The notes under the pieces are model-generated. The model did not search any database, had not been told where the DNA came from, and worked only from the letters and a program-made list of their open reading frames with translations. This document shows positions 2,246 to 35,497 of a stretch of DNA of 64,000 nucleotides, piece by piece (position 1 is the first letter of the stretch; the number at the start of each line of letters is the position of its first letter). Source of the stretch: Elsinoe ampelina (Eukaryota); the NCBI GenBank assembly GCA_010093995.1, contig ML992507.1:741576-805575 (forward strand). Reading direction: 5' to 3'. Both the position numbers and the translations under genes were made by a program.

Positions 2246-3358
2246 GGTGCGAATGAAGTGCTCAAAGAGTGGTTGATGGAAATTTGGCCCTGAGACCTGC
2301 AGCATGGTTGACTTTATACAAAAGATGAATCTCACTCACCTTCACGGATATTCGCGATTCAGCAAATGGCATTGCAGCATTATGGATTGGGGGAATACCA
2401 ACCCCGCTAGATTTGGGTCTATACCGATTGCTTCTCCAGGTAAAGGCAGGCATCCTGCTTCGAGAGGATGGTAAAGTACGCAAGTCATGTCCGCAATTTC
2501 CAGGGAGGTCCGAGCGAGATCTCGTGTGGCCTGGGGCTGGTAGTGGTAGGCTGAGTATAAGCCAATATTGATGGGCAGAGACCGGTGATGTTGCTCGGCA
2601 GCCAACCCGAGTCGAATGGCTTGACCCTGACCACTGGCGTGACCACATGGCTCCTTGCAAGGGACAGCATTAGCAGGACCTCGACCGTTTCCTGTCAGAT
2701 GAAGATCAACTTCAGCTGTAGAGTCCCAATTTGGTGTGATCTACTCGAGCTTGAATGGCCTTCACCGGTCGATAGATTGCGACGAGCTGAGCTGAGGATT
2801 TGACCGGTTTTGCAGCTCGCCAAACCGGGCAGCTCTCACACAGTGCAGACATATCGGCCCCAGTCTCAATGACCCACGCCGCATACTGTCTTCCAGATCC
2901 GTGTGTATCTTTCTGTACAAGTCCAACAGATCAATGTATGACAGGTTTCGAAATGATGAGAAGACAAGGTGAAGCAAAACATCGGAGTAAGCAATGCAGA
3001 CACTTTCCCCTCGAGTCGACCAATCAGGACAAGTTCGCTTGCATCATGCAGACTGCACGCCTCGCCCGCCATCCTTCTATTCTCTATCCAACATGCTTGC
3101 TGCAATTTTTCTTGCGTACATGACTTTCACCGGTCCCAATGGTACCAACAGCGTTACATTGTGAGACTGCCGGCAGTGACAATGTAGAGCTGCAGCAAAC
3201 GGGCGAACTAAGAACCTCGGTATACTTCCTTCGTCCCCCCAGCCTTTCACCCCCTTCCGGACCCCTAATCAACCACCTGCCAGCAGACCGACCAAAAGGA
3301 AGCAAAATGCGACCCCCGCGACAACCTGGTATTCATCAAACTAGAACCAAAAAGCAAA

Positions 3359-3477
3359 AGATACAGCACCTGGGATTCACACGTGGCCACCCACCGCATT
3401 ACTAATCAGGCGATCAGTTGCTTAAATATGGCAGATCTGACGGGATGCCTTGCTTTCAACTGTCTATGGCCGTATCT
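3359..3477 (-). rRNA. 5S rRNA gene, dispersed copy 1
   Basis: 119 nt AGATACGGCC...GTGCTGTATCT with complementary ends and 5S-typical core (GATTAGTA...GGGTG.CCAC.TGTGAATCCC), followed by a T-run Pol III terminator; near-identical to two other copies in the window. Confidence 0.93.
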
Positions 3478-3590
3478 GACAGTGGAAACACATTCTGCCA
3501 ATATGTCCCTTGTCCACCAATGTCCAGTACACGTGCAATGTCCGACCGCTACGAAAAGTGCTCCACCGCCGATGACTCCCACGCACCGGT

Positions 3591-15418: not shown

Positions 15419-15725
15419 GCGATGAAGCATTGCAGGGTGGGCCGCAGTCAACGTAGTGCATGGGTAATGATGGTATAATGCGATCAATGTCTTGTCCAAG
15501 GTATACCTACCAGTGTTCGGCACCTGGTAAAGCATCAGGATGCTGAAGCCTTACGATCAATTACGAATGTTTCAAGTATCGGACAATTGATCGCGGTCGA
15601 CTACGAAGATACCAAGCCTTCACATGAAGGCATGGGCGCCGAAGTCGCGGAGTCATGCTCTTCTAGCCGATACAGGTCAGTCAATGGAATGAGGGGTTAT
15701 ATTGTTTGACATTGTACCTCCCCAC

Positions 15726-15844
15726 AGATACGGCCACAGACAGTTGAAAGCAAGGCATCCCGTCAGATCTGCCATATTTAAGCAACTGATCGCCTGATTA
15801 GTAATGCGGTGGGTGACCACGTGTGAATCCCAGGTGCTGTATCT
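15726..15844 (+). rRNA. 5S rRNA gene, dispersed copy 2
   Basis: 119 nt AGATACGGCCACAGAC...GTGCTGTATCT followed by TTTGCTTTTTTT terminator; TTATATT about 27 nt upstream. Confidence 0.93.
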
Positions 15845-16229
15845 TTTGCTTTTTTTGTACACTTTACTTTCCTTCTTCCTACGCAAAGGATAGGGCAAAT
15901 GAGAATTCGTTGCGTGTGTGCTGGACACAGTTGTCTGGACACAGTTGTCGCAGATCATGACAATGCGGGGACAACACGTCGGACAATCTGCTGCCGAGCA
16001 CATTTTCCACGTTATTTCATGCGCATCTTCACTTTAACTTAACTTTTGACCTGGACGAGTATCGCTGATATTTCTCCGTCGGCACGGTCTAGACATTCCC
16101 GTGCATCATACCGATGTAACGATGTTTGAGCCGCGTGCCGCTTAATTCGGGCAGCTATATAGACGCAATGGAGTCAACATCAACAAAGGTTTGCGTCGTT
16201 TCCTTCAGTCTCGACATACTCCCATCACG

Positions 16230-18765: not shown

Positions 18766-19831
18766 TGTGAAGTTGTAGGGGGTTGTAAGGGGGATGATTG
18801 AAAGTGTTCAAGCGGGTCAGTTGTTGTGAGTGGGCGTAGGTGCTGCTTGATGAGAAGATTGTTGTATGGCACATTCTGCATTTTGGTAGTGTGATGCTGC
18901 ATTGATAGGTTGTGTCGAGGTAGCTTCGTTATCCTCCTTTGATACTCGGGGTATCTCCCTCGCTCTTACTGGTCGGGATTACCAGGAAAATATTCCGATG
19001 TTGATGGATACGGCACTGGACCAATGGGACATAGACACTGTAATCTCCTCACGGCGCCCAATGACATCGGCAGATCACCCTCTCCAGACGGAGGTACTGC
19101 TCTTTTCGTGCAGGCTATCGGTTCCTTATGGTAGTCTTTGCCACGAGTGAGACGGGTGGTGAGGGATAGTCCTCGCCGTCGCCTCCCCTGAGGTCAAGGG
19201 AAGGTGGCGATGCGATTGACTCGGGAGAGCCGAAGAAACAATCTATTTCGAAGAATGCACGGCTTCAAGAAGCGCCGTACCGGATGAGAGGCCCATGATA
19301 TGGGATGCTTGGAGCAACATAGGTTTCCCCATATGATGTGCCATATCTTCCCATCAATCGGAAAGATCGTTGCAGATCCAGGATCCATATGCCAGGGAGT
19401 TAGGTAGGTAGCCAGAGAAGTTGAGACCTCACAGTATCTTCCTGGCAGACTAAATGATAGCAAATACGTGTGCAGCGTCTCCGTAGTACTAGCAGGTGTT
19501 GTCAAAGCTTGCTGAGGTCTGTCCATGGGATGCCGTAACCTCTATCTGCCTCATATGGCAAGCCGCGTCCCCAACCTGTGTGTCAAAGGGTACTGCCTCG
19601 AGAAGTCTCAGGTAGACCTCTCAAGGAGTAGCTTTGCGAACATGAAATGTCCATGGTCAAAGCTGCACGGTACGTCTAAGAGAGACCCAAAAATAGTCCA
19701 CAGGCATAAGCCGCAGCCCTCGGAATGGAGGCTCGCAGGTCACCGCCCATATACCTAGTGGACCAACACAGGAGGAGCACAACGGCGACTCCAATATGAC
19801 TTGGTAGTATTAAACATGCAAAAAAAGAAAA

Positions 19832-19950
19832 AGATACAGCACCTGGGATTCACACGTGGTCACCCACCGCATTACTAATCAGGCGATCAGTTGCTTAAAT
19901 ATGGCAGATCTGACGGGATGCCTTGTTTTCAACTGTCTGTGGCCGTATCT
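19832..19950 (-). rRNA. 5S rRNA gene, dispersed copy 3
   Basis: 119 nt, differs from copy 2 at one position (25 G>A); followed by TTTTCTTTTTTT terminator; ATATAT upstream. Confidence 0.93.
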
Positions 19951-20856
19951 GCCAAGGCCTGTAAAATGATATATGATCTTGTATAATTTTGAAGGGTGAT
20001 GCAAGAAAGTAGGCAATGGCTCTGCCGCAGCACCGACAGATGCTACCGTCCGTCACTTGGTGCTATTGTCCGTCACTCAATGGCCATGTTACTCAGGCTG
20101 GTACCTGTATGCTACAAGCAGGTATGCCCCTCTTTGTCTTCTCCTTTTCTCTCAGCCGGTATGATTGTACAGGACCGGACCATCACCCTCGCCAAGCCTA
20201 CCCTTGAAACAAGCACCAGCCCCCAGCCCTACGACTCGCTCGCTTGGGAGCCACGAGTCAGCCACCCCACGTGTCACGGCCGCAGGGCCCGTGGGCCTGA
20301 GCGACGATCTGCGTTGTCCGGCGATCGTGTGTTGGTGTCCTGAAATGGAAAAAGGTGTAGCAGGGGTGACCATGGGAGTCAATGGTTCCGGATTGGGCAA
20401 CATTCGCGCGGATTAGACTACATGGTGGTGGTGTTAAAGTGACCCGGGACGGCTGGAATGAATTGTGTGATTGATTTGTACTGTATTCGACAGAGTATTT
20501 GATATAAACCCCTGAGTGGTCGATTTAGGTTGGGAGACGGGCAGAAGGTGTGTGTGTTGCCTTGTGCCAGGAATATACTCGGTTATAGTTGACCTTGTAG
20601 GTCGTGGCACGGAGTCGTGAAGCGACGATCGTGCGTGCTGTACGGCATGCCAGCGACATGGTACTAGGTCATCGAGATGTGGTTGGGTACCTTCGTTCAT
20701 TGTTGGCCCCTGCGGAGCCATACGGTGTGCGTAGTGACAACAACATAGTTCCGATATGATCTGAGTGATCCGCTCGGGGACTTTACCAGGCGTAGCTCTC
20801 CACTACCAGTCGGCCAGATAGAGCAGATAGTTCGTGGTGAGCCTAACGGGAAATGC

Positions 20857-21964: not shown

Positions 21965-22073
21965 GTTCGATAACCTCTTGGACGGCTGGTGCTCAGTATC
22001 AAGATGAAATGAAGCGGGGAGTGTATAGGCGAAGAGCAAGTATTGGGCAAGAATGCGGAGTTTACTGTACCAA

Positions 22074-22332
22074 TGTCAACCGAGGCATAAGCTGGAGCGC
22101 CAAGAAGACCCTGATTCAGTTTATCCCAAGGTTGAACTAAACACTTATCCACTACTCTACTAATTTATGATCAAATTAGATGGTTATTGTCTTAATCTGT
22201 TATTACTTAGGAGTTCTATTGATTTATCTATCTCTTAGTTTATTAGGTTAAGTATTTATATAGTTATAATTTACCTTAGTTTAGTGAATTAGGTAGTAAT
22301 TAATCCTTTTTCCTCCCTTATACAAGTTAATA
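22074..22332 (+). repeat. Copia 5' LTR
   Basis: Aligns without gaps to 34201-34459; differences are C>T/G>A transitions. Confidence 0.95.
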
Positions 22333-22614
22333 GTTATAAGCCCGGTATAACTACCCCTATATAAGTATATTACTTAGTTGCTTTCCTACTCTATTTATTA
22401 GTTAATTCTCTACTATTTTACTTTTTAAGTATTAGAATCTATTAAGAACTGTCTTAACTATAACTACAGGATTTAGGTGTTAATAAAGGGATAAATAACT
22501 ATAGATACTAATACCTTAATAGCTAGAACATCTATTATCCTTGCTATATTAGCTAAATAGGCTAGCTAGCTATATATTATTAAGATAAGAGCATTAAATA
22601 CTAAGATATAGAAC

Positions 22615-23079
22615 TATTACGAACTAGTAGGACAAGCTAGAGCATAGAGATGTTAGGACTAATTAAACTACTAAGGTTATTACGTAACCTAGCTCGATGT
22701 TTACTTAGTTCTTTATCTTCTCTAGTAGCTCTACTCTAGAAACTATAGAGCGTATAGGATTACTAGTAGACGTATACTCTGTCTTCTCTAGCGGCTCTAC
22801 TATAGAGCACATAGAGTATATAGAGTATATAGTAAAGAACATATATATATAGGAATAGTCCTTACCTTATATAAGTACTATAGTTAACCTTGTCTAGATA
22901 GCGAATACTAGTATTACTAAGGCTAGCCTTTATAATACTATCTAATTGTACTTTATTATCTATAAGATATACCTTCTCTAACTCTTACCTTAGTACTATA
23001 CTACTATAGAAGTAGAACTACCTTGTTCTTAGCTTAGCTTAGACTACTAATGTAAGCTATATTTAGACAGTTCGTAACA
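22615..23079 (+). repeat. Gypsy 5' LTR
   Basis: Gapless match to 29172-29636; ends GTTCGTAACA. Confidence 0.95.
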
Positions 23080-23195
23080 TTTTAACTACCCTTACTATAG
23101 TATAGCACGCTATAAGGTTAATAAGTAACTCTTACTCTAAGTTACTATTAGCATCTTCGATCGCTAGTAAGCTAGAAAAGCTTACTATTAATAAT

Positions 23196-25181
23196 ATGTC
23201 TACTACTAGTTTAACCTCGAGTAAATATAGAAGGTCTCTTAGTATAGAGGAAGAATAGAGTAAGCCTAAGTTAGAAGTAGAACTCTTCTATAGGGACCGC
23301 GCCTACTTAAGGCGCTTCCTTATTTAACTTAAAGCTTTCTTTACTCTAGAGAGAGATAAGTATACTAACGACGTAGTAAAGGTCCTCTATACTAGAATAT
23401 ATCTTAAAGGCGCTACCTTTAGGTAGTTTAAGCCTTATATAAGTAGCTACCTAGATAGATAACTAGGCCTAGATATAAAGGCTATCTTTAAGAGCTTTAG
23501 TATCTTCTAGGCAAAGATTAAGTAAGTCTTTAATATATCTAATAAGAAATATATCGCCGCGACGAAGATCTAATAACTATAATAACGTAGGTCTATAGCC
23601 TAGTACTATTCCTAGTTCTAATAACTTATAATACACCTAGACTAGAATAATAGTGCTAAATATTTAGTATTCTACTAAGGACTAAGTAACTTAGTCAAAG
23701 ACTAAATAATACCTAAGCTACCTAATAGCCTCTAAGAACTAGTAGATACTATAATTACTATTAATAACTAACTTTACAAACGACGTATAGAACGTTATAG
23801 AGGATATAAGGTAAATACTAGATATACGCGTTTCTCTCGAAACTATAGAGACTCTATAGAACTTAACGTTATACGCGAAGGTTGCCCCTTATAGGTACAA
23901 GGCCGAAGTTATAGAGGAAAGTTCCTTAGTAGAAAAGAGAAAGAGAAGTATAGATAAGACAATCTATATTTTAAGTATAAAAGACCTAGGTATTAGGCTA
24001 GGGACTACTAATAAGAGGCGCTAGCCGATAGATTATATATAATAGTTGCCGGGCTAGTAGAGAAAAAGGCTAACACTACTATAGAAGACCTAATAACCTT
24101 TAGCGTAGGTAAGGAAACATAGAAGAAGTCTATAACAACTTAAGAGGTAATAGAATTCTCTCTAGATATTACACTTAACATTTCTACAACTAATAGCAAA
24201 TAATAAAGCTAATATATAACACTATTATAGATAGTATATTATAATAACTCTTGTTATATTTACTTATTAGACAAGTAGAAATCTAGTTAGTTTCTATATA
24301 AGCTATCTAAGCGTAGGTAACTAACGAAATAGCTAGACTAGAAACCTAACCTAGAAGAGCTCTCTATAATTAGTAGTAATATTAACTAACCTTAGAGAGT
24401 AGTTAGCGACAATTACTAATATACGATTATTAAGACGAAGTATTAGAACGTAAGTGCTATATAACAATATAGTAGTCTTACCTTTAGCTCTTATAGCAAA
24501 CTATAAGGAAAGGCATATTATATATCGCTCTAGAAATGTATAAATCTAGATTGTAAATAGTACTATACTATTTACTTATACGATATACTTAGAGAAGAGG
24601 CTATTAGTCTTAAATATACTATAGACTTCTTAGTAATCGAAATAGATAGTACTATTCTCTATAGCTAAGTACGGGAATATACTTAGTATAGCTTTACTAA
24701 CTATAACTATACTAGAGATAGTAGCAATAAAGAGAAATATAACGAAGAATATACTAAATAACTATAATATAACAACATAGATAACAATTTATCTAACAAC
24801 GACAACGATATACTACTACTAGGTAGACGACTTAAAGTATACCTTATAGGGATATAGAGAAACTATATAATAATATACACCTATTACTAGAACAGAACAC
24901 GACAAGATAAATCTACTTAACCTACTTTCGTCTTTAATGCTAATACCTAGCTATACCTAGAGAGAATAGTTATACTAATATAAGTATATAACACTACTTA
25001 GTGTAACTAATAGAGAATTATTAGACTTTATAGTCATTAAGGAACGTAAGTACCGGAAGTTTACCTCGCTATATTAAATAATAACAAGACATAACTAGCC
25101 TAATAGATATAGTACTAATAGTAGATACGCGTAGGAAGGAATTAGCTACTTATCTAAGGCGCTATAATAACAAAAAACTAG
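23196..25181 (+). pseudogene. Gypsy ORF1 (gag with long C-terminal extension), RIP-disrupted
   Basis: ATG at 23196, zinc knuckle and two W..C-x4-C-x2-H motifs share one frame, which ends in AAAAAAC-TAG at 25172-25181. Confidence 0.7.
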
Positions 25182-28100
25182 CTAGTTGTTACCTAATAAG
25201 GTAAGATAATAACACTAGCTAAAGCCTTAATATAATAAAGATCCATATATTAAATTACTTTATACTAGAAGTCTAGATACAAGAAAATAAGGTAAGAGCA
25301 ATAATAGATTTAGGAGCTAACTATAGCTACGTCTCTATAATAGTTACTAATTAGCTTAAACCTTATTAACATTAGAAGGAGTTACCTTATCTACTTACTA
25401 TAGCGGATAGAACCCCTATAGAAAAGGATAGGAAAGTTACTTAGGAACTACGAAACGTTATAATTAGAATTAGGACATATATAGAAAAACAATTAATTAA
25501 TATAGTTAACATGTAGTATAATATAGTACTCGGCATAGACTAGCTTTAATAATACAATCTAGACGTAGACTAGATTAAAGAAACACTTAAATTCCCTAAG
25601 TACAATTATAGGACGTAGGAAGTATAATTAGCTCTATAGATACTAACTATAAGGACAGTATAGGTACGACTAATAGTTAGAGCTATTACTAGCGTAAGTA
25701 ATTAAGCACTTCCGCTAGAATATAAAGACTTTAAGGACTTATTTAAAGAAAGAGAAGGTATTATAGTCTTACTCTAATATAAACTATAGAATTATAAAAT
25801 ACCTTTTAAAGAGAGTAAATCCCCGATATACTATTAAGGTCTTATACTACTATTAAAACAAGAGAAGAATATCCTTAAGAACTATATTAATAAGTACTTA
25901 CTTAAAGGATTTATATAACTATTAAAATTACCTATTATATACGAAGTGCTTTTTATACTAAAAAAGGATAGAACGTTATAAATATACATTAATTACTAGA
26001 AACTTAATACACTTACTAGGAAGAATCGCTATCCCCTACTAAGGATTAACAAACTTTAAGACCGACTACTTAGAGCTAAATAGTTCACCGCGATTAACAT
26101 TAGGGACGCCTATTATTAAGTATAAATAAAGGAGAGCAAGGAGTAGAAAATAGCTTTTAGAACGTAATAGAGTCTATATAAGTACCTCGTTATACTCTTT
26201 AGGTTAACTAATACTCCTATAACCTTCTAAGAGTTAATTAATAACACTCTATAAAAATACCTTAACGACTTTATCTTAGTATATTTAGATAATATTATTA
26301 TTTTCTTAAAGACGTATAATAAACATATAGGATATGTTTATAAAGTACTATAGAAACTAAAAGAGAAAGACCTACTAGTAAAACTCTCTAAGTATAAGTT
26401 CTATAAGTATAAGATACAATTTCTAAGCTATGTTATATCTACTAATAGTATTAGACCTAATCTGAGAAAGATTAAGTTAGTAAATAACTAGCTAGAACCT
26501 ACAATAGTTAAGGAAATTTAAGCGCTACTAGAGTTCTTTAACTACTACTATAAGTTTGTTAAAGGATTCTCTAAGGTAGCTACGCTAATATCTAACCTTA
26601 CGAAAAAGGAAACTAGCTTTATCTTCGACAAGAGATATAGGTAGGCCTTTAAGGAGCTAAAGCTTAGGCTTACGATAGTACTTGTCCTAGTACTCTTCGA
26701 CCTAGACTAATAAGTACTACTAGAAATAGATACCTTAGACTTTGTAATAGAAGCGTATCTAGCGTAGAAGAACGTAGAAGAACGACGCTGCCTAATTGTA
26801 TACTACTTACGAAAAATAACTAGACTTAAACTTAACTACGATATATACGACAAGGAATTACTTACGATTATAGAAGCGTTCTATAAATAGAGAGTATACC
26901 TAGAAGAGACGACCTTACCTATATAAGTCTATACTAACTATAAGAACCTTCTATATTAGACAACAACTAAGGTTCTTAATAGATAATAGGTTTAATAGTT
27001 AGAAACACTTATAAGCTATAACTTCTAGATCTACTATGTTAAGGAATTAGAGAACAGCGGAGTAGACGCTCTTAGTCGCTAGCTAGATTACTTAAAAAAT
27101 ATAACAATAATAGAGGCCTCTATACTAAAGTAGTAGGACGGCGCTTTAGTCTATAAGCACCTAAAGGTAGAGCAGTTATATAGCCTTACCTAGGAGCTTA
27201 TATAAGAACAGAAAAAAGAAGTTATTTAAATACACTATAATAATCTAACTATAGGATATAGTAGGATCGATAAGACTATTAAACTTATTATATAAAACTA
27301 CCTCTAGAAAGAACTCCGAAACGATATTAAGACATATATTGCTATATATAATACATGCTATAAGTCTAAACACTCTCGATATAAACTATATAGCCTACTA
27401 TAACCCTTACTACTACTAGACAAACTATAGTAATTAGTTACAATAGACTTTATAAGACCTCTACTACTATTAGAAGAACCCCTTATAGGTGTAAAGTATA
27501 ATAGTATTCTAGTCCTAGTAGATAGATTTATAAAGTATTACTATTTTATACTATATAAGACAATAGTAACTATCGAGAATATAGCCTTTACCTTTCTCTA
27601 AATAATTGTTTTACGACATAGAGTACTACGAGACCTAATAACTAATAGGGATAAGCTATTTACGTTATAATTCTAGTAATTATTTGTAGATCTACTAAGA
27701 GTCAAATATAAGCTATTAATCTCCTTTTACCTATAAACGAATAGATAAACTAAATAGGCAAATTAAGTACTAGAGTAGTACCTACGCTACTACCTAAACT
27801 ATAAGCAAGACTTATAAGTAACACTATTACCGCTTATAGAGCTTACTATTAATAATAGAAAGTTAGTAAATAAAGTTTTACTATTCTATATAAACTATAG
27901 AATATACCTAGATCTATACTACGATATACTCGGAATTAAGCTAATATCTAAGGATATAAATAAACTAGTAGCTAACATTAAGAAGTTATATAACTAGCTA
28001 TACTAAGATATAGTATTTATATTATAAAGAATAGCAGGGTTTACTAACTAGAAGAGAATTGTAGAACTAATTCTATAGGAGAGAGAGAAGGTTTACCTCC

Positions 28101-28570
28101 TTAGTAAAAACATTAAAACGAAACGACTAAGTAAGAAACTTAACTATACTAAACTAGAACCCTTTAAGATCCTAGAAAAGAAAAACAAAAACATATATAA
28201 ACTAGAACTACCTAGATATATAAGGATCTACCTAGTCTTTTATATATTACTATTAGAGAAAGTACTATAGGACGTAGTACCTAGACCTATTAAACTAGAT
28301 AAAGAAACATAGAAGCTATAATATAAGATTAAAAGAGTTTTACATTATAAATCTATAAGGGGAAAACGTTACTATCTTATTCACTAGAAAGGACATTAGT
28401 ATAGTAAGGCAATATAGGAACTAGAGGAACACCTTACCTCGTAAGTAATTCTAGATTACTAAACTAAAAACCTATCCTAAGTAAACCGACTAGGTAGGCT
28501 AGACGCTACTAACACTAAACAAAAACGAGAACGCCTAAGGAAGACTACTTAGCCGATAGAAGCACCCTAA
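25180..28570 (+). pseudogene. Gypsy pol (PR-RT-RH-IN-chromodomain), RIP-disrupted
   Basis: PR, RT and chromodomain motifs lie in one frame, -1 relative to ORF1; ends are approximate because RIP created many stops. Confidence 0.85.
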
Positions 28571-29097
28571 TCATTACTAAATAAGGAACTCTAATTAGAG
28601 TTAGGTATAAATAATTACTAATCCTATAGTAGAACAGGATCTACTAACGATAGTATTTCCTCTTACTCTAGGACTTAAATACGAGTTTCCTCTAGGGAAA
28701 TTGCTTTCTCCGCCTTATTCTCTAGTTTCTATATTGCTTCGCGTAGGTAAAGCTTATCGCCTATAGCTCTTTAATAAGCCTCTTTTGCCTTTTTATAAGC
28801 TTCTTTAGCTTCCTTTCTAGTAGCCTTAGCTATAACTAATTCCTTTCGTAAATAAATATACTTAGACTAGAGACGCTACTATTCTAATTTTATTACCTAA
28901 ATATTATAACTTAAGTAGTTACTTACGACATACTAGCTATAGATACCCGACCGAATATAGACCTTATAGTCTAGCCCCTTCGATTTACAACAAGAATAAG
29001 CCTATAGTATATTAGTTCTAAATAGTTTAATAAACTCCGAGAGATTCTTTTATATAGATGTACTAGATTTACTATGTCTTTAACAACTAGAAGGCAT
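28549..29097 (-). pseudogene. Antisense extra ORF of the Gypsy element (Zn2Cys6-spaced motif + coiled coil), RIP-disrupted
   Basis: 183 codons without frameshift; internal stops are all TAA/TAG (derivable from CAA/CAG/TGG); TAT/TGT codons spaced C-x2-C-x6-C-x8-C-x2-C-x7-C at 28998-28906. Confidence 0.65.
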
Positions 29098-29171
29098 ATT
29101 TAGTATATAGTATATAAAGATAGAGAGAGATACTTACTTATTAGGACAACTCGATTAAAGGAGAAGAGTAA

Positions 29172-29636
29172 TGTTATAAACTAGTAGGACAAGCTAGAGT
29201 ATAGAGATATTAGGACTAATTAAACTACTAAGGTTATTACGTGACCTAGCCCGACGTTTACCTAGTTCTCTATCTTCTCTAGTAGCTCTACTCTAGAAAC
29301 TATAGAGCGTATAGGATTACTAGCGGACGTATACTCTATCTTCTCTAGCGGCTCTACTACGAAGTATATAGAGTATATAGAGTACGTAGTAAAGAATATA
29401 TATATATAGGAATAGTCCTTACCTTATATAAGTACTATAGTTAACCTCGTCTAGATAGCGAACACTAGTATTACTAAGGCTAGCCTTTATAATACTATCT
29501 AATTGTACTTTATTATCTATAAGATATACCTTCTCTAACTCTTACCTTAGTGCTATACTACTATAGAAGTAGAACTACCTCGTTCTTAGCTTAGCTTAGA
29601 CTACTAATGTAGGCTATATTTAGACAGTTCGTAATA
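29172..29636 (+). repeat. Gypsy 3' LTR
   Basis: Starts TGTTA after a purine tract; followed by TSD AGAAC. Confidence 0.95.
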
Positions 29637-32011
29637 AGAACCTTATTAATCCCTAGAAGACTATTAAACTAAAAGGGCTCCCTAAGCCTTAGAGACTAGA
29701 GGTAGTAAATACTAACTTCTTAGTACTCTTCTAGATATATAAGGAGGAATAAGTATAATATAATAAATAGTATAAGGCCTTAGCTAATTTAGCTAGCCTT
29801 ATTTAGTTATTAATTACACTATAAGTTCTTATTATTATCTAACTAGAAGGGGATCCTTATCTATAGGCTATTCTTAGAGCATTAAAGAATAGATTTACTC
29901 TATCTAATATAGCTATTTAGCTTAAGATTAAAGTACTCTAGAGAAAGTAGCTATCTAGCTCTTCCTTATAGAATATAGACTATTAGCTTTAGTAATAGGA
30001 AGAGGTTATAGACAAGGCTAGGAACTATAATCTACTAGAAGCTTAAGGCTTAAGGCTATAGAGAGACTTCTTACTCTCTATCTTAAAGGCTAAACTAGCA
30101 TTTACTAATAAGTACCTTATTAATCTAGATTTACTAACTCTACTAACTATACTTAAACTAATTACTAAGTTTAGACAGTTTTATAAACTCTATAAGCTAT
30201 ATAGTACTATAAAGGCTAGTAAGGGAGCTACGGCCTTCCCTATAGCTACTAAGAATATTCTTTATAAGAAACCTAGTTCCCCTAGGAAGCCTAAATATAT
30301 ATACTAAGGCTAGTATAAGTAGATTAAGTACTATTACTTAAATAAGTATCTAAGGCTAGAAGGATAGACACTAAACTAGTAGACTATAAAGGAGGTTAAA
30401 CAAAGGCTAAATAATAAGACTCTTAAAGAGAGAATTAAGGTTTCTATTACTAAGGAAGTATAACATTAGAAGGAGTTAACTCTACTAGTGTTAATTAACA
30501 TAGCTATTACTATTAGATTATACTTAGTATTTATCTTAGCTACTACTAACATCTTAAGCTTATAGATACTAGATTCTAGAGTAACTAATTATATCTATAA
30601 TTACACTATAAAGGACAGATATAAAGTTACTAGAATTATAGAACCTTATAAGAAGCTATTCTATAGTAATACCTTACTTAGTATTAAGAGTTAAGGAATT
30701 ATTAATATTATAGCTCTTTATAAAGGAAAGCCTATAATTATCTATCTTATAAAGGTAGCCTATATACTATTAATTATAACTAATCTAGTTAGCCTTAGGA
30801 GGTTTATTAATAGTAGAGTCTACTAGAACACTTAAACTATAAAAATTAGCTATAAAGGAAAAGTACTCTTCTTAGTTATACTAAAGTATAACTAATATAT
30901 TCTTAAGAATAACTCTAAAGTTCCTAATATTGCTACTATAGCATTAAGGGATAATAATAATTGTCTACTATTAGTATTTATTATAGTTACTATAAGGACT
31001 AATTAATCTTAGTATAAAGTTATAGGCTATCTAAGCCTAGAGTCTATTAATTACCTTTTAACTACTATAGTTAGTAGTAAGCTAACTCTAACTAAGCCTA
31101 GTTTAGTAGCTTAACTAATTTATCTTAGGTCTTTATATTAGACTTATAAGCTATTAAATACTTAGCAGATTATATTAAGAAGCTCTAATACTAAACTTGC
31201 TATATTAAAGCTATTTAAGAGAACTACCTTTAATATTATTATTAATAGATTTACTAGCTATAATAAAGTAAGATATATAAGTTACTTTACCTATAGGACT
31301 ACTAACTATTAACTAGTTACTACCTATACTTATAGATATAAGATTAATAAAATCTATATTAAGATAATTACTTATATTAAAACCAATCTTAGCTTTAAAA
31401 TTAGATTCCTTAGGAGTAACAATAAGAGAGCCTTTAGCCTTAAATTTACTATCTTTCTAGATAGTAAAGGAATCTATTATAAGCTATCTACTCTATATAC
31501 TTAAGCTTAGAATAGCTATAATAAAAGGATAAGAGCTATACTATTAAGGAGAGTAAGGGTAATTACTATCTTTGCTAATCTACTAAGGGAATTACACTCT
31601 AAACTATATAGATTAGTAGCTTATCTAATTAATAGAATACCTCTTAAGAAGCTAGACTAGAAGACTTCTTTTAAGCTAGTTTATAGATATTCTTTATTAG
31701 TTACTTATCTTAGGCTACTTAGATATAAAGCTTATACTTTAGATAAGCTTATTATAAGTAGTAACAAGCTTACACTAAGGGCTTACATTAGCTATTTAGT
31801 TAGCTATAACTTAACTAACATCTTTAGGATCTTTATACTAGCCTCTAAGAAGGTTATTAGAATAAGAGATATTAGATTTAATAAAACTTAGTTCTATAAG
31901 CTAGAGGAGTAACCTTAGCTAAAACTAATTAGATTATTTAATCTACTAAGGCTCCTATAGGAGGTTAATAAATCTAAAAGGGTATATAAAGTAGAGAGAA
32001 TAACTAAACTA

Positions 32012-32106
32012 AATCTAGTTTACTATCTAGTTTAGTATCTAGTTTAGTATCTAGTTTAGTATCTAGTTTAGAATCTAGTTTAGAATCTAGTTTAGAATCT
32101 AGTTTA
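32012..32106 (+). repeat. 12-bp tandem repeat (about 8 x ATCTAGTTTAG[T/A]) in the Copia integrase-RT linker
   Basis: Directly visible tandem array; unit length is a multiple of 3. Confidence 0.85.
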
Positions 32107-32362
32107 GTAGCTAAACTAGATACTATCTTAGACTCTAAGTTAGAGCAATCTAGATTAAGAGCTAAGCCTACCTTAGTAGCTAGATAAGAGTTACCCTATT
32201 ACACTAAATTAGTTACTACCTCTATTAGACTAATTAGATAAGGCTATTCTAGATCTAAACCTAGCTTAGATCTAAGAATCTTTACTAAATAAATAGCTCT
32301 TTAATACTTTAGCCTTACTACTATCTATAGTAGTATAGCTATCTCCTCTACTACTAGGAGGA

Positions 32363-32802
32363 NNNNNNNNNNNNNNNNNNNNNNNNNNNNNNNNNNNNNN
32401 NNNNNNNNNNNNNNNNNNNNNNNNNNNNNNNNNNNNNNNNNNNNNNNNNNNNNNNNNNNNNNNNNNNNNNNNNNNNNNNNNNNNNNNNNNNNNNNNNNNN
32501 NNNNNNNNNNNNNNNNNNNNNNNNNNNNNNNNNNNNNNNNNNNNNNNNNNNNNNNNNNNNNNNNNNNNNNNNNNNNNNNNNNNNNNNNNNNNNNNNNNNN
32601 NNNNNNNNNNNNNNNNNNNNNNNNNNNNNNNNNNNNNNNNNNNNNNNNNNNNNNNNNNNNNNNNNNNNNNNNNNNNNNNNNNNNNNNNNNNNNNNNNNNN
32701 NNNNNNNNNNNNNNNNNNNNNNNNNNNNNNNNNNNNNNNNNNNNNNNNNNNNNNNNNNNNNNNNNNNNNNNNNNNNNNNNNNNNNNNNNNNNNNNNNNNN
32801 NN
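32363..32802. other. Assembly gap (440 N) inside the Copia element
   Basis: Run of N characters. Confidence 0.99.
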
Positions 32803-34200
32803 TAATTAATAGAATCTAAGACTTATATAGTAACTCTAGTAGCTAAGATCTTTAGAATACTTATAGTATTACTTACTTATAAAGATATAAAGGCTATCTA
32901 GATAGATGTTGTTAATATCTATATTAATAGTTCTATTAATAAGACTATCTACTATACTATCCCTACTAGATTTAAGCTAGTTATAGATAATCTTATAAAG
33001 GACTATCCTAGTATTACTCTATTAGATGTAATTCTGCTACTTAATAAAGTATTATATAGCCTAAAGTAAGCCTTAGCTCTCTAGTATACTAAATTTACTA
33101 CTACTCTAAAGAGTATTAGATTTACTTAAGCCCCTAAGGCTCTATACCTCTAAATAACACCTAAAGTAATAATCTTCTTCTTTATAAATAATATTACTAT
33201 TATATATCTTAAGAAGTATAAGGAGAAAGCTAATACTATTATTATAGCTCTCTATACTAAATATAAAATAAAGGTACTTAGAGATCTAAGCTAGTTTCTA
33301 GCTATCTAAGTTATAAGGGATAGACTAATAAAGAAACTCTAGCTTAGCTAAGCCTAGTATATATAACAGATATATAGTAAGTTTATTATAGAACTAATAA
33401 GGCTAGTGTTAATACTACTACTAATTAAGATACTCTAACCTTATAAAGGCTAAGTATTACTATAAGAGATCTACCTATATTAGTAAAAAGTAGAATCTAT
33501 TAACTTTATAGTAGTTATTATAAGACCTAATATAGCCTTTGCTACTTCTAGATTATTAGAGTATCTAATAAATCTATTACTAACTTACTAAAGGATAGTA
33601 AATAGAGTAATCTAATATCTCTATAAAACTAAGAATTTAGCTTTTACTTTTAATAGCTTAATACTACTACTAATCTTTTAAGCTTTATTAGATACTAGCT
33701 TTAGTAGCTACCTAATAAGGAAGAGCCTTTAAAGCTATCTCTTTAAGATATTTTAAGGATTAATTAACTAAAAGGCTATAAAGCAACTAATAGTTATAAT
33801 ATTAACTATAGAGGCTAAGCTACTTACTCTTATAGAGACTACTAAGTAAGCTATATAGTAGAGAAGGCTAATAGCCTCTATCTATCCCCTTAAACATATT
33901 AGTATTTAGTATAATAATTAGTAAACTATTAGTCTTATTACTACTCTAATAAAGAAGCTAAATATATATCTTTACTATATTAATATTTATTATTATTAGC
34001 TAAAATAAGAGATTAATTAAGCTAGAGATCTATCTAGCTCTATCTTAGTAATATAGACACTATTAGTAGACACCTTAGCTAATAGATTTACTAAATTACT
34101 ACTACCTAGGAGGTATAAGGCCTTCTTATAATAGCTATCCTTTAAGTTAGTAGTCTACTAACTAGCTATTATAGAGTTATAGCTACTTAGTAAAGGGGTA

Positions 34201-34459
34201 TATTAACCGAGGTATAAGCTAGAGCGCTAAGAAGACCCTAATTTAGTTTATCCTAAGGTTAAACTAAACACTTATCTACTACTCTACTAATTTATAATTA
34301 AATTAGATAGTTATTGTCTTAATCTGTTATTACTTAGGAGTTCTATTGATTTATCTATCTCTTAGTTTATTAGGTTAAGTATTTATGTAGTTACAATCCA
34401 CCTCAGTTTAGTGGATCAGGCAGTAATCAATCCTTTTTCCTCCCCCACACAAGTCAACA
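34201..34459 (+). repeat. Copia 3' LTR
   Basis: Ends ...AAGTCAACA followed by TSD ACCAA. Confidence 0.95.
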
Positions 34460-35497
34460 ACCAATCAATCGGGCGGGCAGAGCTGAAGTCCGATTCACCA
34501 CGCTAGAGCAAAAGCAGTTGGCGGTCTATCCTCGTCGATTGGCTACGAGTCAGCCCTGTGCAGAATTTAGATCAGCCACGCATCATGCCGTGCAGTCTTC
34601 GCGTGTCGCCAATGACAATAATCCGAGGGCACTCGCGCCCTGCGAGCGACGCTAGACACCCGACTGGGAAGACATGCATGCCACTTCGCTCGCCTGGAAT
34701 AGTAGGGTACCCTTTTGTGCTCTGGATGTAACGTTCGTACAGGTCGATAATTCTAGGACGCGAATGAGTCGATGGCACGTTTCGCCTGCAGATGGATCAT
34801 GTCATGCGGGTTGGATGTTGCGTACGCAGCAATAGATCGGGTGAGGCAGAGTAGCTATTGTCGTCGAGCTGAATCGTTGGGCTATGAGGAAGTATCAATC
34901 CTACCAGGCAGAAGGCAGAGATGGACGTTTGCCATCAGCGAAGATCGTCCAGGATGCTATTCCGTTTCCCTCTGGCAATGCAGGAGAAGACAAGGCATCT
35001 TCCATTCAAACGTCATGGTACAGCTTGAAAGACGGCTGTGCTCCCCGCCATCCCGCGACTTCCGCGTAAATTATCGTGATAGTTCGTTGCCTTGTTGACT
35101 GCAGGGTGGGTCACGTTCTCATGCAGGACAGGTACGAGCACTCGAGCTAGTACAGATTGGATGTGTATCCTGCGCAAGGAGTAAAAACTTTGGGTGGAAT
35201 TATTGCTCATGCATTTCGTAGCTCGGCGCTGCCGAAGAGGATTACAAATGAATTTCTATCTGGTATTTCTGTCGTGATGGGCTGCATGTAGCCTTTCATC
35301 ATCGAAGCGACTGAGGGGTGACTGTACATTCTCCCAAGATCCCTCGAGGGTCATGCCTTTCCGTATAACCCAAGATACTCCAAGAAAAAAAAAAGCCCAT
35401 GGTAGCAGAAGACCGCCCCGCAGTGATCCTGAAAATGCTCGCGCTGTCGTGAATGTCCGTGAAACTCCTCCATCATATCCTACATTCAAATACGTGC

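Follow-up and report, generated by a model that had tools for sequence, protein, structure and literature searches.

A RIP-damaged retrotransposon with an antisense frame

The window, a 64,000-nt stretch of Elsinoe ampelina DNA (assembly GCA_010093995.1, contig ML992507.1), carries a plus-strand Ty3/gypsy retrotransposon at 22615-29636 (Table 1). Its two LTRs differ at 27 positions, transitions throughout, and the target-site duplication AGAAC is present at 22610-22614 and 29637-29641. The LTRs, the duplication, and the RT-RH-INT domain order are those of a Ty3/gypsy chromovirus. Pfam recognized RT, RNase H, integrase Zn, and SH3 domains in the pol remnant, which shares 48% identity with the pol of the sister element L110. 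No Chromo match was obtained in the window copy's own pol at E 0.01 (Pfam); L110 pol matched Chromo at 66 bits, and the Pfam chromodomain scored above cut-off in all seven intact relatives' pol proteins scanned, L110 included. The element sits in a block of AT-rich DNA whose RIP indices are strong.

Table 1. Features of the gypsy element and of its antisense gene (window coordinates)
Feature	Position	Strand	Basis or remark
5′ LTR, 465 nt	22615..23079	+	
gag remnant	23196..24200	+	48% identity to L110 gag; no Pfam match of its own
pol remnant (RT, RNase H, integrase, SH3; chromodomain-like end)	25166..28552	+	convergent with the antisense gene
Antisense accessory gene, about 182-183 codons, inactivated	28549..29097	-	17 internal stops; homolog profile match
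C-terminal tail, candidate activation region	28552..28647	-	acidic with aromatics in intact homologs
Coiled-coil region, codons ~68-150	28648..28896	-	homolog helix model and heptad-step lengths
Six-cysteine cluster positions, codons 34/37/44/53/56/64	28906..28998	-	here five Tyr and one Cys
N-terminal helix region, codons 11-31	29005..29067	-	S-T-x-R-R-x-x-L ... G-x-x-M conserved in intact homologs
75-nt leader, 3′ LTR end to ATG	29098..29172	-	polypurine tract ~29158-29171 (+); GTCCT core 29147-29143
3′ LTR, 464 nt, putative antisense promoter	29173..29636	+	

The gypsy element is nested inside a RIP-damaged Copia-type element, with RVT_2 and SH3_retrovirus matches downstream at 29640-34200. 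Outer direct repeats of the Copia-type element, 258 nt long, were found at 22073-22330 and 34200-34457, and it carries a 12-nt tandem repeat of about 14 units at 31988-32155. Elsewhere in the window, in gene-rich surroundings of normal GC content, a repeat of 130-160 nt occurs three times (3349-3509, 15694-15857, and 19819-19954; 89-98% alike, one inverted), possibly a small mobile element or a solo LTR.

The antisense frame lies between the plus-strand pol and the 3′ LTR, as the earlier note on this DNA had stated. Its claim that an ATG at 29097 opens 183 codons without a frameshift held for the coordinates, with the stop codon at 28551-28549, and for the continuity of the reading frame, but the frame is not open, being interrupted by the stops listed in Table 1. 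These stops are indeed all TAA or TAG; TGA, however, is missing from five of the six reading frames of this segment, so this argument is empty. The six TAT/TGT codons that had been read as former cysteines are TAT, TGT, TAT, TAT, TAT, and TAT in order (28998-28906). Their spacing of x2-x6-x8-x2-x7 was confirmed in the minus-strand frame, and the E/K/A-rich stretch that follows them is present. A profile built from 64 natural homologs matched this frame alone among the six frames of 22000-34500, at 29103-28645 with an i-E of 2e-26, the next-best match having an i-E of 2.4. The copy in the window is dead, makes no full protein, and serves as a pointer only.

Copies in the Elsinoe ampelina genome

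A genome protein search returned 112 matches, 100 of them near full length and each of those with at least five stops. From 80 loci retrieved, 64 distinct full-length copies were analyzed. The frame was free of indels in 63 of the 64, and transitions account for 97.6% of the differences that separate the window copy from the 63 others in the region of interest. Cysteine was retained at codons 34, 37, 44, 53, 56, and 64 in 5, 16, 0, 0, 6, and 2 of the 64 copies, respectively. Stop columns fixed in all 64 copies numbered three in the antisense frame and 5-11 in each of the other five; the pol frame, examined in two control windows, had one and five, resembling the antisense frame. The antisense frame follows pol in most genomic copies and is conserved across families, as is characteristic of an antisense aORF-3R. 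Neither the window copy nor a less-mutated one gave matches in word-indexed homolog searches, and Pfam returned just weak, unrelated DUF matches for both.

Four copies (G000:C6:180767, C6:167242, C16:476478, and C16:469029) matched codons 1-114 alone, which suggests a common deletion or insertion point.

Intact homologs and the six-cysteine pattern

The less-mutated genomic copy, L061, with its five stops read as X, was used as the query for a full HMMER scan of 1.84 billion representatives, which yielded 86 matches at E ≤0.001. Six cysteines were present in 58 of these, spaced x2, x6, x8, x2, and x6-8 in 57 and with x11 in one. Among the remaining 28 were six long, unrelated multi-stretch matches, some truncated proteins, and roughly ten that by eye have Tyr where Cys is expected, the outcome that RIP would produce. 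Tyr at Cys positions was seen in the database proteins P0032, P0044, P0048, P0056, P0060, P0064, P0066, P0080, and P0088, apparently RIP-damaged copies annotated as genes.

Cysteines 33, 36, 43, 52, 55, and 64 of the intact L110 protein align exactly to the six codons of the window. This protein shares 40% identity over 173 aa with the less-mutated genomic copy and 30% with the window copy. Natural intact homologs, on which the comparison relied in place of a back-mutated peptide, have Cys at all six aligned sites; the frame in the window is RIP-damaged. Intact members are 170-210 aa long and consist of an N-terminal helix, a basic six-Cys cluster, a coiled coil governed by heptads, and an acidic tail; S11, T12, R15, L18, G26, and M29 are invariant in 18 intact homologs.

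The consensus for Zn(II)2Cys6 domains is C-x2-C-x6-C-x5-12-C-x2-C-x6-8-C. Its x6 spacing is exact in 57 of the 86 matches, and the window copy keeps one of the six cysteines. Zn_clus (PF00172), with which the earlier note had proposed a search, was the commonest Pfam family among the members, found for 10 of 64 at E ≤0.1, but the matches are weak (best 0.0026). One homolog bears the UniRef name "Zn(2)-C6 fungal-type domain-containing protein". In the Atlas, the clusters in the neighborhood of two homologs consist of ascomycete proteins without names (62-210 members), and TM to Zn-cluster clusters was at most 0.32. A scan of IMG/VR gave one pattern match and no relative.

Position in related elements

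Metagenomes were scanned with one peptide pattern, which gave 36 loci, several of them the same element in different assemblies; a single pattern samples one subfamily. A 15-row alignment was used for this locus scan, the 64-row alignment being too diverse. Seven of the 36 loci were too short for the downstream side to be assessed. Among the 29 with at least 500 nt downstream, pol lies on the opposite strand directly downstream in 27; the location is conserved in related elements. The end of pol falls within about -15 to +134 nt of the end of the gene (17 loci measured). In 26 of the 36 loci the antisense frame stays open throughout the match, and the distance from ATG to LTR end is 44-121 nt in all 25 of 25 loci (75 nt in the window). 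No gene free of an element was found among the loci examined with long enough flanks.

The remaining two of the 29 loci are one element in two assemblies, arranged LTR-gag-gene-LTR without pol. In this 2.4-kb element (L112:4673-7086 and L113:7542-9955), the LTRs enclose a damaged gag and a six-Cys antisense gene whose frame is open. It is a non-autonomous derivative that has retained the accessory gene.

L110 is sister to the window's family both in the integrase tree (100/100) and in the accessory-gene tree (95/92, on a long branch). Overall, the two trees show only partial agreement (Mantel r 0.38, p 0.01, 15 rows), suggestive of some exchange of modules. L091, L111, L114, and L115 are placed differently in the two trees, a hint at exchange of the 3′ module between families.

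Selection on the antisense frame

Selection was assessed on 21 intact sequences after four duplicates and one truncated row were dropped. The dN/dS comparison among families that the earlier note had called for revealed purifying selection, with pN below pS in 210 of 210 pairs. Among the 25 closest pairs, the 18 that were unsaturated gave dN/dS of 0.05-0.16. The median dN/dS was 0.33 (36 pairs with dS of 0.05-2), a value that we counted against our best explanation. The signal was kept in codons 1-70 and in codons 71-140, outside the overlap with pol, in six of six pairs. Element-strand frames were open in 2, 1, and 0 of the 21 loci; being mostly closed, they argue that the gene is not the shadow of a sense ORF. 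We conclude that the stretch in the window is very probably a RIP-inactivated copy of a genuine third gene, carried antisense between pol and the 3′ LTR by an ascomycete clade of chromoviruses (Ty3/gypsy).

Predicted structure of the protein

The structure of the homolog P0003 was modeled with a mean pLDDT of 85. Its helices are one at residues 17-31, a short pair in the Cys region, and a long one at 75-159 with pLDDT above 90, followed by a C-terminal tail of low pLDDT. Among the Foldseek matches listed for this model, the first 23 are Zn2Cys6-type structures (E 0.36-6.8, none significant), with short matches at an rmsd of 2.3-2.7 Å over 33-37 residues. They include Cep3 in CBF3 entries, which we take to be of the Zn2Cys6 type. 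A wide structure search was filled by long helices (Z ≤7.5), and the best sequence match to a solved structure was Lac9 at E 0.2. Fold and family matches to Zn2Cys6 are all sub-significant.

The cluster carries a charge of +4 to +8 and the last 50 aa one of -4 to -12 (25 of 25 rows, duplicates included). After the third Cys and ahead of the fourth, K/R-V-H-x-R-S-G-K/R is conserved. The residue equivalent to Gal4 Lys18, the fourth after the second Cys in the Lac9 alignment, is Gly in 21, Asn in 15, Lys in 6, Arg in 4, and Ser in 4 of 56 homologs, and Gly in the window's family. According to passages of PMC6265462, Lys18 makes the sole side-chain base contact of Gal4 with CGG, and its place is taken by Asn in Pho7 and by His in Put3.

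In 52 of 60 homologs the distance between two conserved anchors of the coil is a multiple of 7, ranging from 49 to 91 residues with the gaps in mid-coil; the coil is 7-13 heptads long. Steps of whole heptads speak well for a genuine coiled coil. The peak of hydrophobic periodicity lay at 3.4-3.6 in 14 of 25 rows, whereas in 11 it fell on the edge of the scan.

The earlier note had envisaged a dimerizing protein of transcription-factor type. Modeled as a homodimer, P0003 scored 0.50 against 0.01 for the best of three controls, with at least 90% contact agreement between runs and pLDDT of at least 79. Among solved structures, 21 of 30 homodimers reach the mark used for dimers, as against 0 of 23 monomers; in eukaryotes, the figures are 17 of 29 homodimers, 1 of 7 without an older relative, and 0 of 30 monomers. 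A homodimer is supported by the modeling, but its predicted form is unlike that of Gal4. The modeled contacts (95-123, 88-130, and 102-116) are antiparallel around residue 109, an arrangement that would set one cluster at each end of the dimer. Structure models made without an alignment are known to be weak on the orientation of coils.

The leader and expression data

A palindrome between the polypurine tract and the ATG, centered 25-27 nt inside the LTR end, was found in 23 of 25 relatives. A score of at least 6 of 7 pairs was reached in 23 of 25 loci, whereas two control windows inside the gene reached it in 4 and 10 of 25; shuffles were beaten at p 0.05 in 16 of 25 loci. These counts are not independent, since the sequences are related. 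The arms occur in 19 different sequences and co-vary; Watson-Crick pairs make up 159 of 175, and the eight wobbles are without exception G-U as read on the antisense strand. In the window's family (score 5.0 in the window, 4.5 in L061) and in L110, the palindrome is weak. The window has the GTCCT core, on the minus strand, at the same offset as the relatives' palindrome. CGG/CCG triplets are rarer than expected upstream of the ATG (139 against 267 in mononucleotide shuffles, 21 loci), and CpG depletion may lie behind this low count.

Four runs from the same species, guessed to be RNA and available as contigs only, contained one 80-nt piece of LTR and left the gene uncovered, which is evidence neither for nor against expression. 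Short metagenome contigs with little but the gene were considered as transcripts and rejected, having no poly(A) or shared ends.

Proposed function and alternatives

We favor, at roughly an even chance, a positive trans-regulator, encoded by the element and acting on its own LTR. The accessory mRNA would start from an antisense promoter within the 3′ LTR or next to it, and its product would fold a Zn2Cys6-type cluster and bind zinc. The protein would homodimerize through its coil, and the dimer would bind DNA of its own element, most likely at LTR sites other than the standard CGG pairs. The acidic tail would then raise or protect transcription of the genomic RNA. By analogy with proposals for plant antisense aORFs and with known retroviral accessory genes, the protein would be a trans-acting accessory regulator. 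The evidence speaks against a plain Gal4 reading: the base-contact residue is variable, the Zn_clus match is weak, and the modeled dimer is antiparallel. The low CGG/CCG count upstream of the ATG, the only partial agreement of the two trees, and the use of one pattern for the locus scan also count against the favored reading.

It is possible, though unlikely, that the protein does not serve transcription and that an antiparallel homodimer, each end bearing a zinc cluster, instead joins two distant sites, such as the two LTRs, the cDNA ends, or element DNA and chromatin. Such a bridge or ruler would help in integration-complex assembly, nuclear import, or targeting. The antiparallel contacts of the P0003 model point this way, as do a coil whose ends are conserved while its middle (alignment gaps, residues 98-111) changes by whole heptads, a C-terminal coil end that is acidic in 59 of 60 homologs, and a basic cluster. 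However, the orientation comes from one predicted model of one homolog, folded without an alignment. Heptad-step indels would also suit a parallel coil, and a fixed LTR-to-LTR geometry would hardly be compatible with coil lengths that differ by as many as six heptads.

A related and tentative idea, about as unlikely as the bridge, concerns a broad clade of fungal chromoviruses. Their zinc-cluster protein may be a Gal4-type activator rebuilt as an antiparallel dumbbell, with a DNA-binding head at either end and a coil that each family keeps at its own number of whole heptads. If this were true, it would bridge two sites on the element, LTR to LTR or LTR to the hairpin by the polypurine tract, and would act in trans on pol-less copies. 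It would then be the first fungal retrotransposon accessory regulator with a testable mechanism.

A negative regulator or host modulator seems rather improbable. Such a protein would limit its element, in the manner of HBZ or of copy-number control, or would alter host genes, for example by trapping zinc-cluster factors of the host. The loss of the base-reading Lys in many members is in keeping with this, and the antisense position resembles that of HTLV-1 HBZ as described in parts of PMC11963269. Against this, the gene was never found free of an element among the loci examined with long enough flanks, and strong self-limitation is not suggested by the at least 100 near-full copies in the genome.

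We see a slim chance that the protein acts at the RNA level, on the hairpin beside the polypurine tract, as a Rev-like export factor or as a helper in packaging or priming. The variety of arms in 23 of 25 relatives and the confinement of wobbles to G-U on the antisense strand would suit a structure in RNA, and the pol-less element retains gag, the accessory gene, and the hairpin region. Against this, the hairpin is weak in the window's family and L110, one in-gene control window scored as high in 10 of 25, and the hairpin may be general to these elements, as all those examined carry the gene. Zn2Cys6 domains are, moreover, known DNA binders.

A chance pattern, or the shadow of a sense gene, in a sequence where RIP makes many TAT codons, could appeal to the two codons (44 and 53) that are never Cys in the 64 copies and to the lack of a Pfam or word-indexed match for the damaged sequence, but it is refuted by the homolog family with Cys at all six aligned positions, by the conserved location, by purifying selection in an antisense frame opposite mostly closed element-strand frames, and by the scarcity of fixed stops in that frame, as in pol, and is scarcely credible. 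The most promising leads are the coil with its heptad rule, the predicted antiparallel dimer, the gene-bearing element without pol, and the hairpin next to the polypurine tract.

Comparison with known systems

BRTN, the product of the Boty gene brtn, reportedly has a Zn2Cys6 cluster, coiled coils, a signal peptide, and a transmembrane segment, and MutB of the Yarrowia element Mutyl reportedly carries a Zn2Cys6 motif. Intact homologs of the window's gene differ from BRTN as so described in having no obvious hydrophobic leader (by eye), and the name BRTN does not occur among the named family matches. Boty is likewise a fungal chromodomain gypsy element with an antisense gene between pol and the 3′ LTR, although BRTN could be compared by description only. 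Passages of PMC7264820 place brtn, an extra antisense gene, in Boty of Botrytis cinerea and Sclerotinia sclerotiorum, and parts of PMC8365987, PMC4227169, and PMC5987419 also treat it. If the description of BRTN is right, the window's family is likely a further member of the brtn kind. The earlier note had cautioned that novelty needed checking, and the brtn precedent does limit it. Apart from the brtn citations, we found no zinc-cluster antisense gene described in fungal gypsy elements in the literature searched. Such a gene goes without mention in the relevant parts of PMC3248453, PMC6338049, PMC7175516, PMC10085805, PMC4600332, and PMC2447501, and the words "antisense", "zinc", and "Boty" do not occur in those of PMC3248453.

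According to passages of PMC7264820, what antisense accessory genes do for LTR retrotransposons is still an open matter. The present family makes the question directly testable, since it offers a small, well-folded protein under selection with a DNA-binding-type head, intact alleles found in nature, and a candidate cis-element. A further consequence is that fungal annotations include some "Zn(2)-C6 domain" or hypothetical genes that belong to retrotransposons as cargo and are not host transcription factors.

The family resembles Gal4-type factors (Gal4, Hap1, Leu3, Ppr1, Put3, Pho7, and Lac9; PF00172) in its six-Cys spacing, its basic cluster, and its downstream coiled-coil helix. Unlike them, its members are about 190 aa long, have no middle homology region, are borne by a retroelement, and carry the conserved K/R-V-H-x-R-S-G-K/R loop. 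The Lys18 position is mostly Gly or Asn, and the coil is long and modeled as antiparallel. Plant aORFs (Grande gene23, RIRE2, and Retand TRP28) and HTLV-1 HBZ also lie antisense between pol and the 3′ LTR, as parts of PMC7264820 and PMC11963269 describe; the same passages propose a nuclear or regulatory role for them and an own antisense promoter in Grande and HTLV. They differ in hosts and domains, and no sequence relation was seen (TRP28 was absent among the Pfam matches listed). Among Mutator-like elements, mutB of Yarrowia Mutyl and VANC of Arabidopsis exemplify, in sections of PMC6446971, an element-borne DNA-binding or anti-silencing factor of the sort proposed here, although these elements are DNA transposons and mutB lies in sense orientation.
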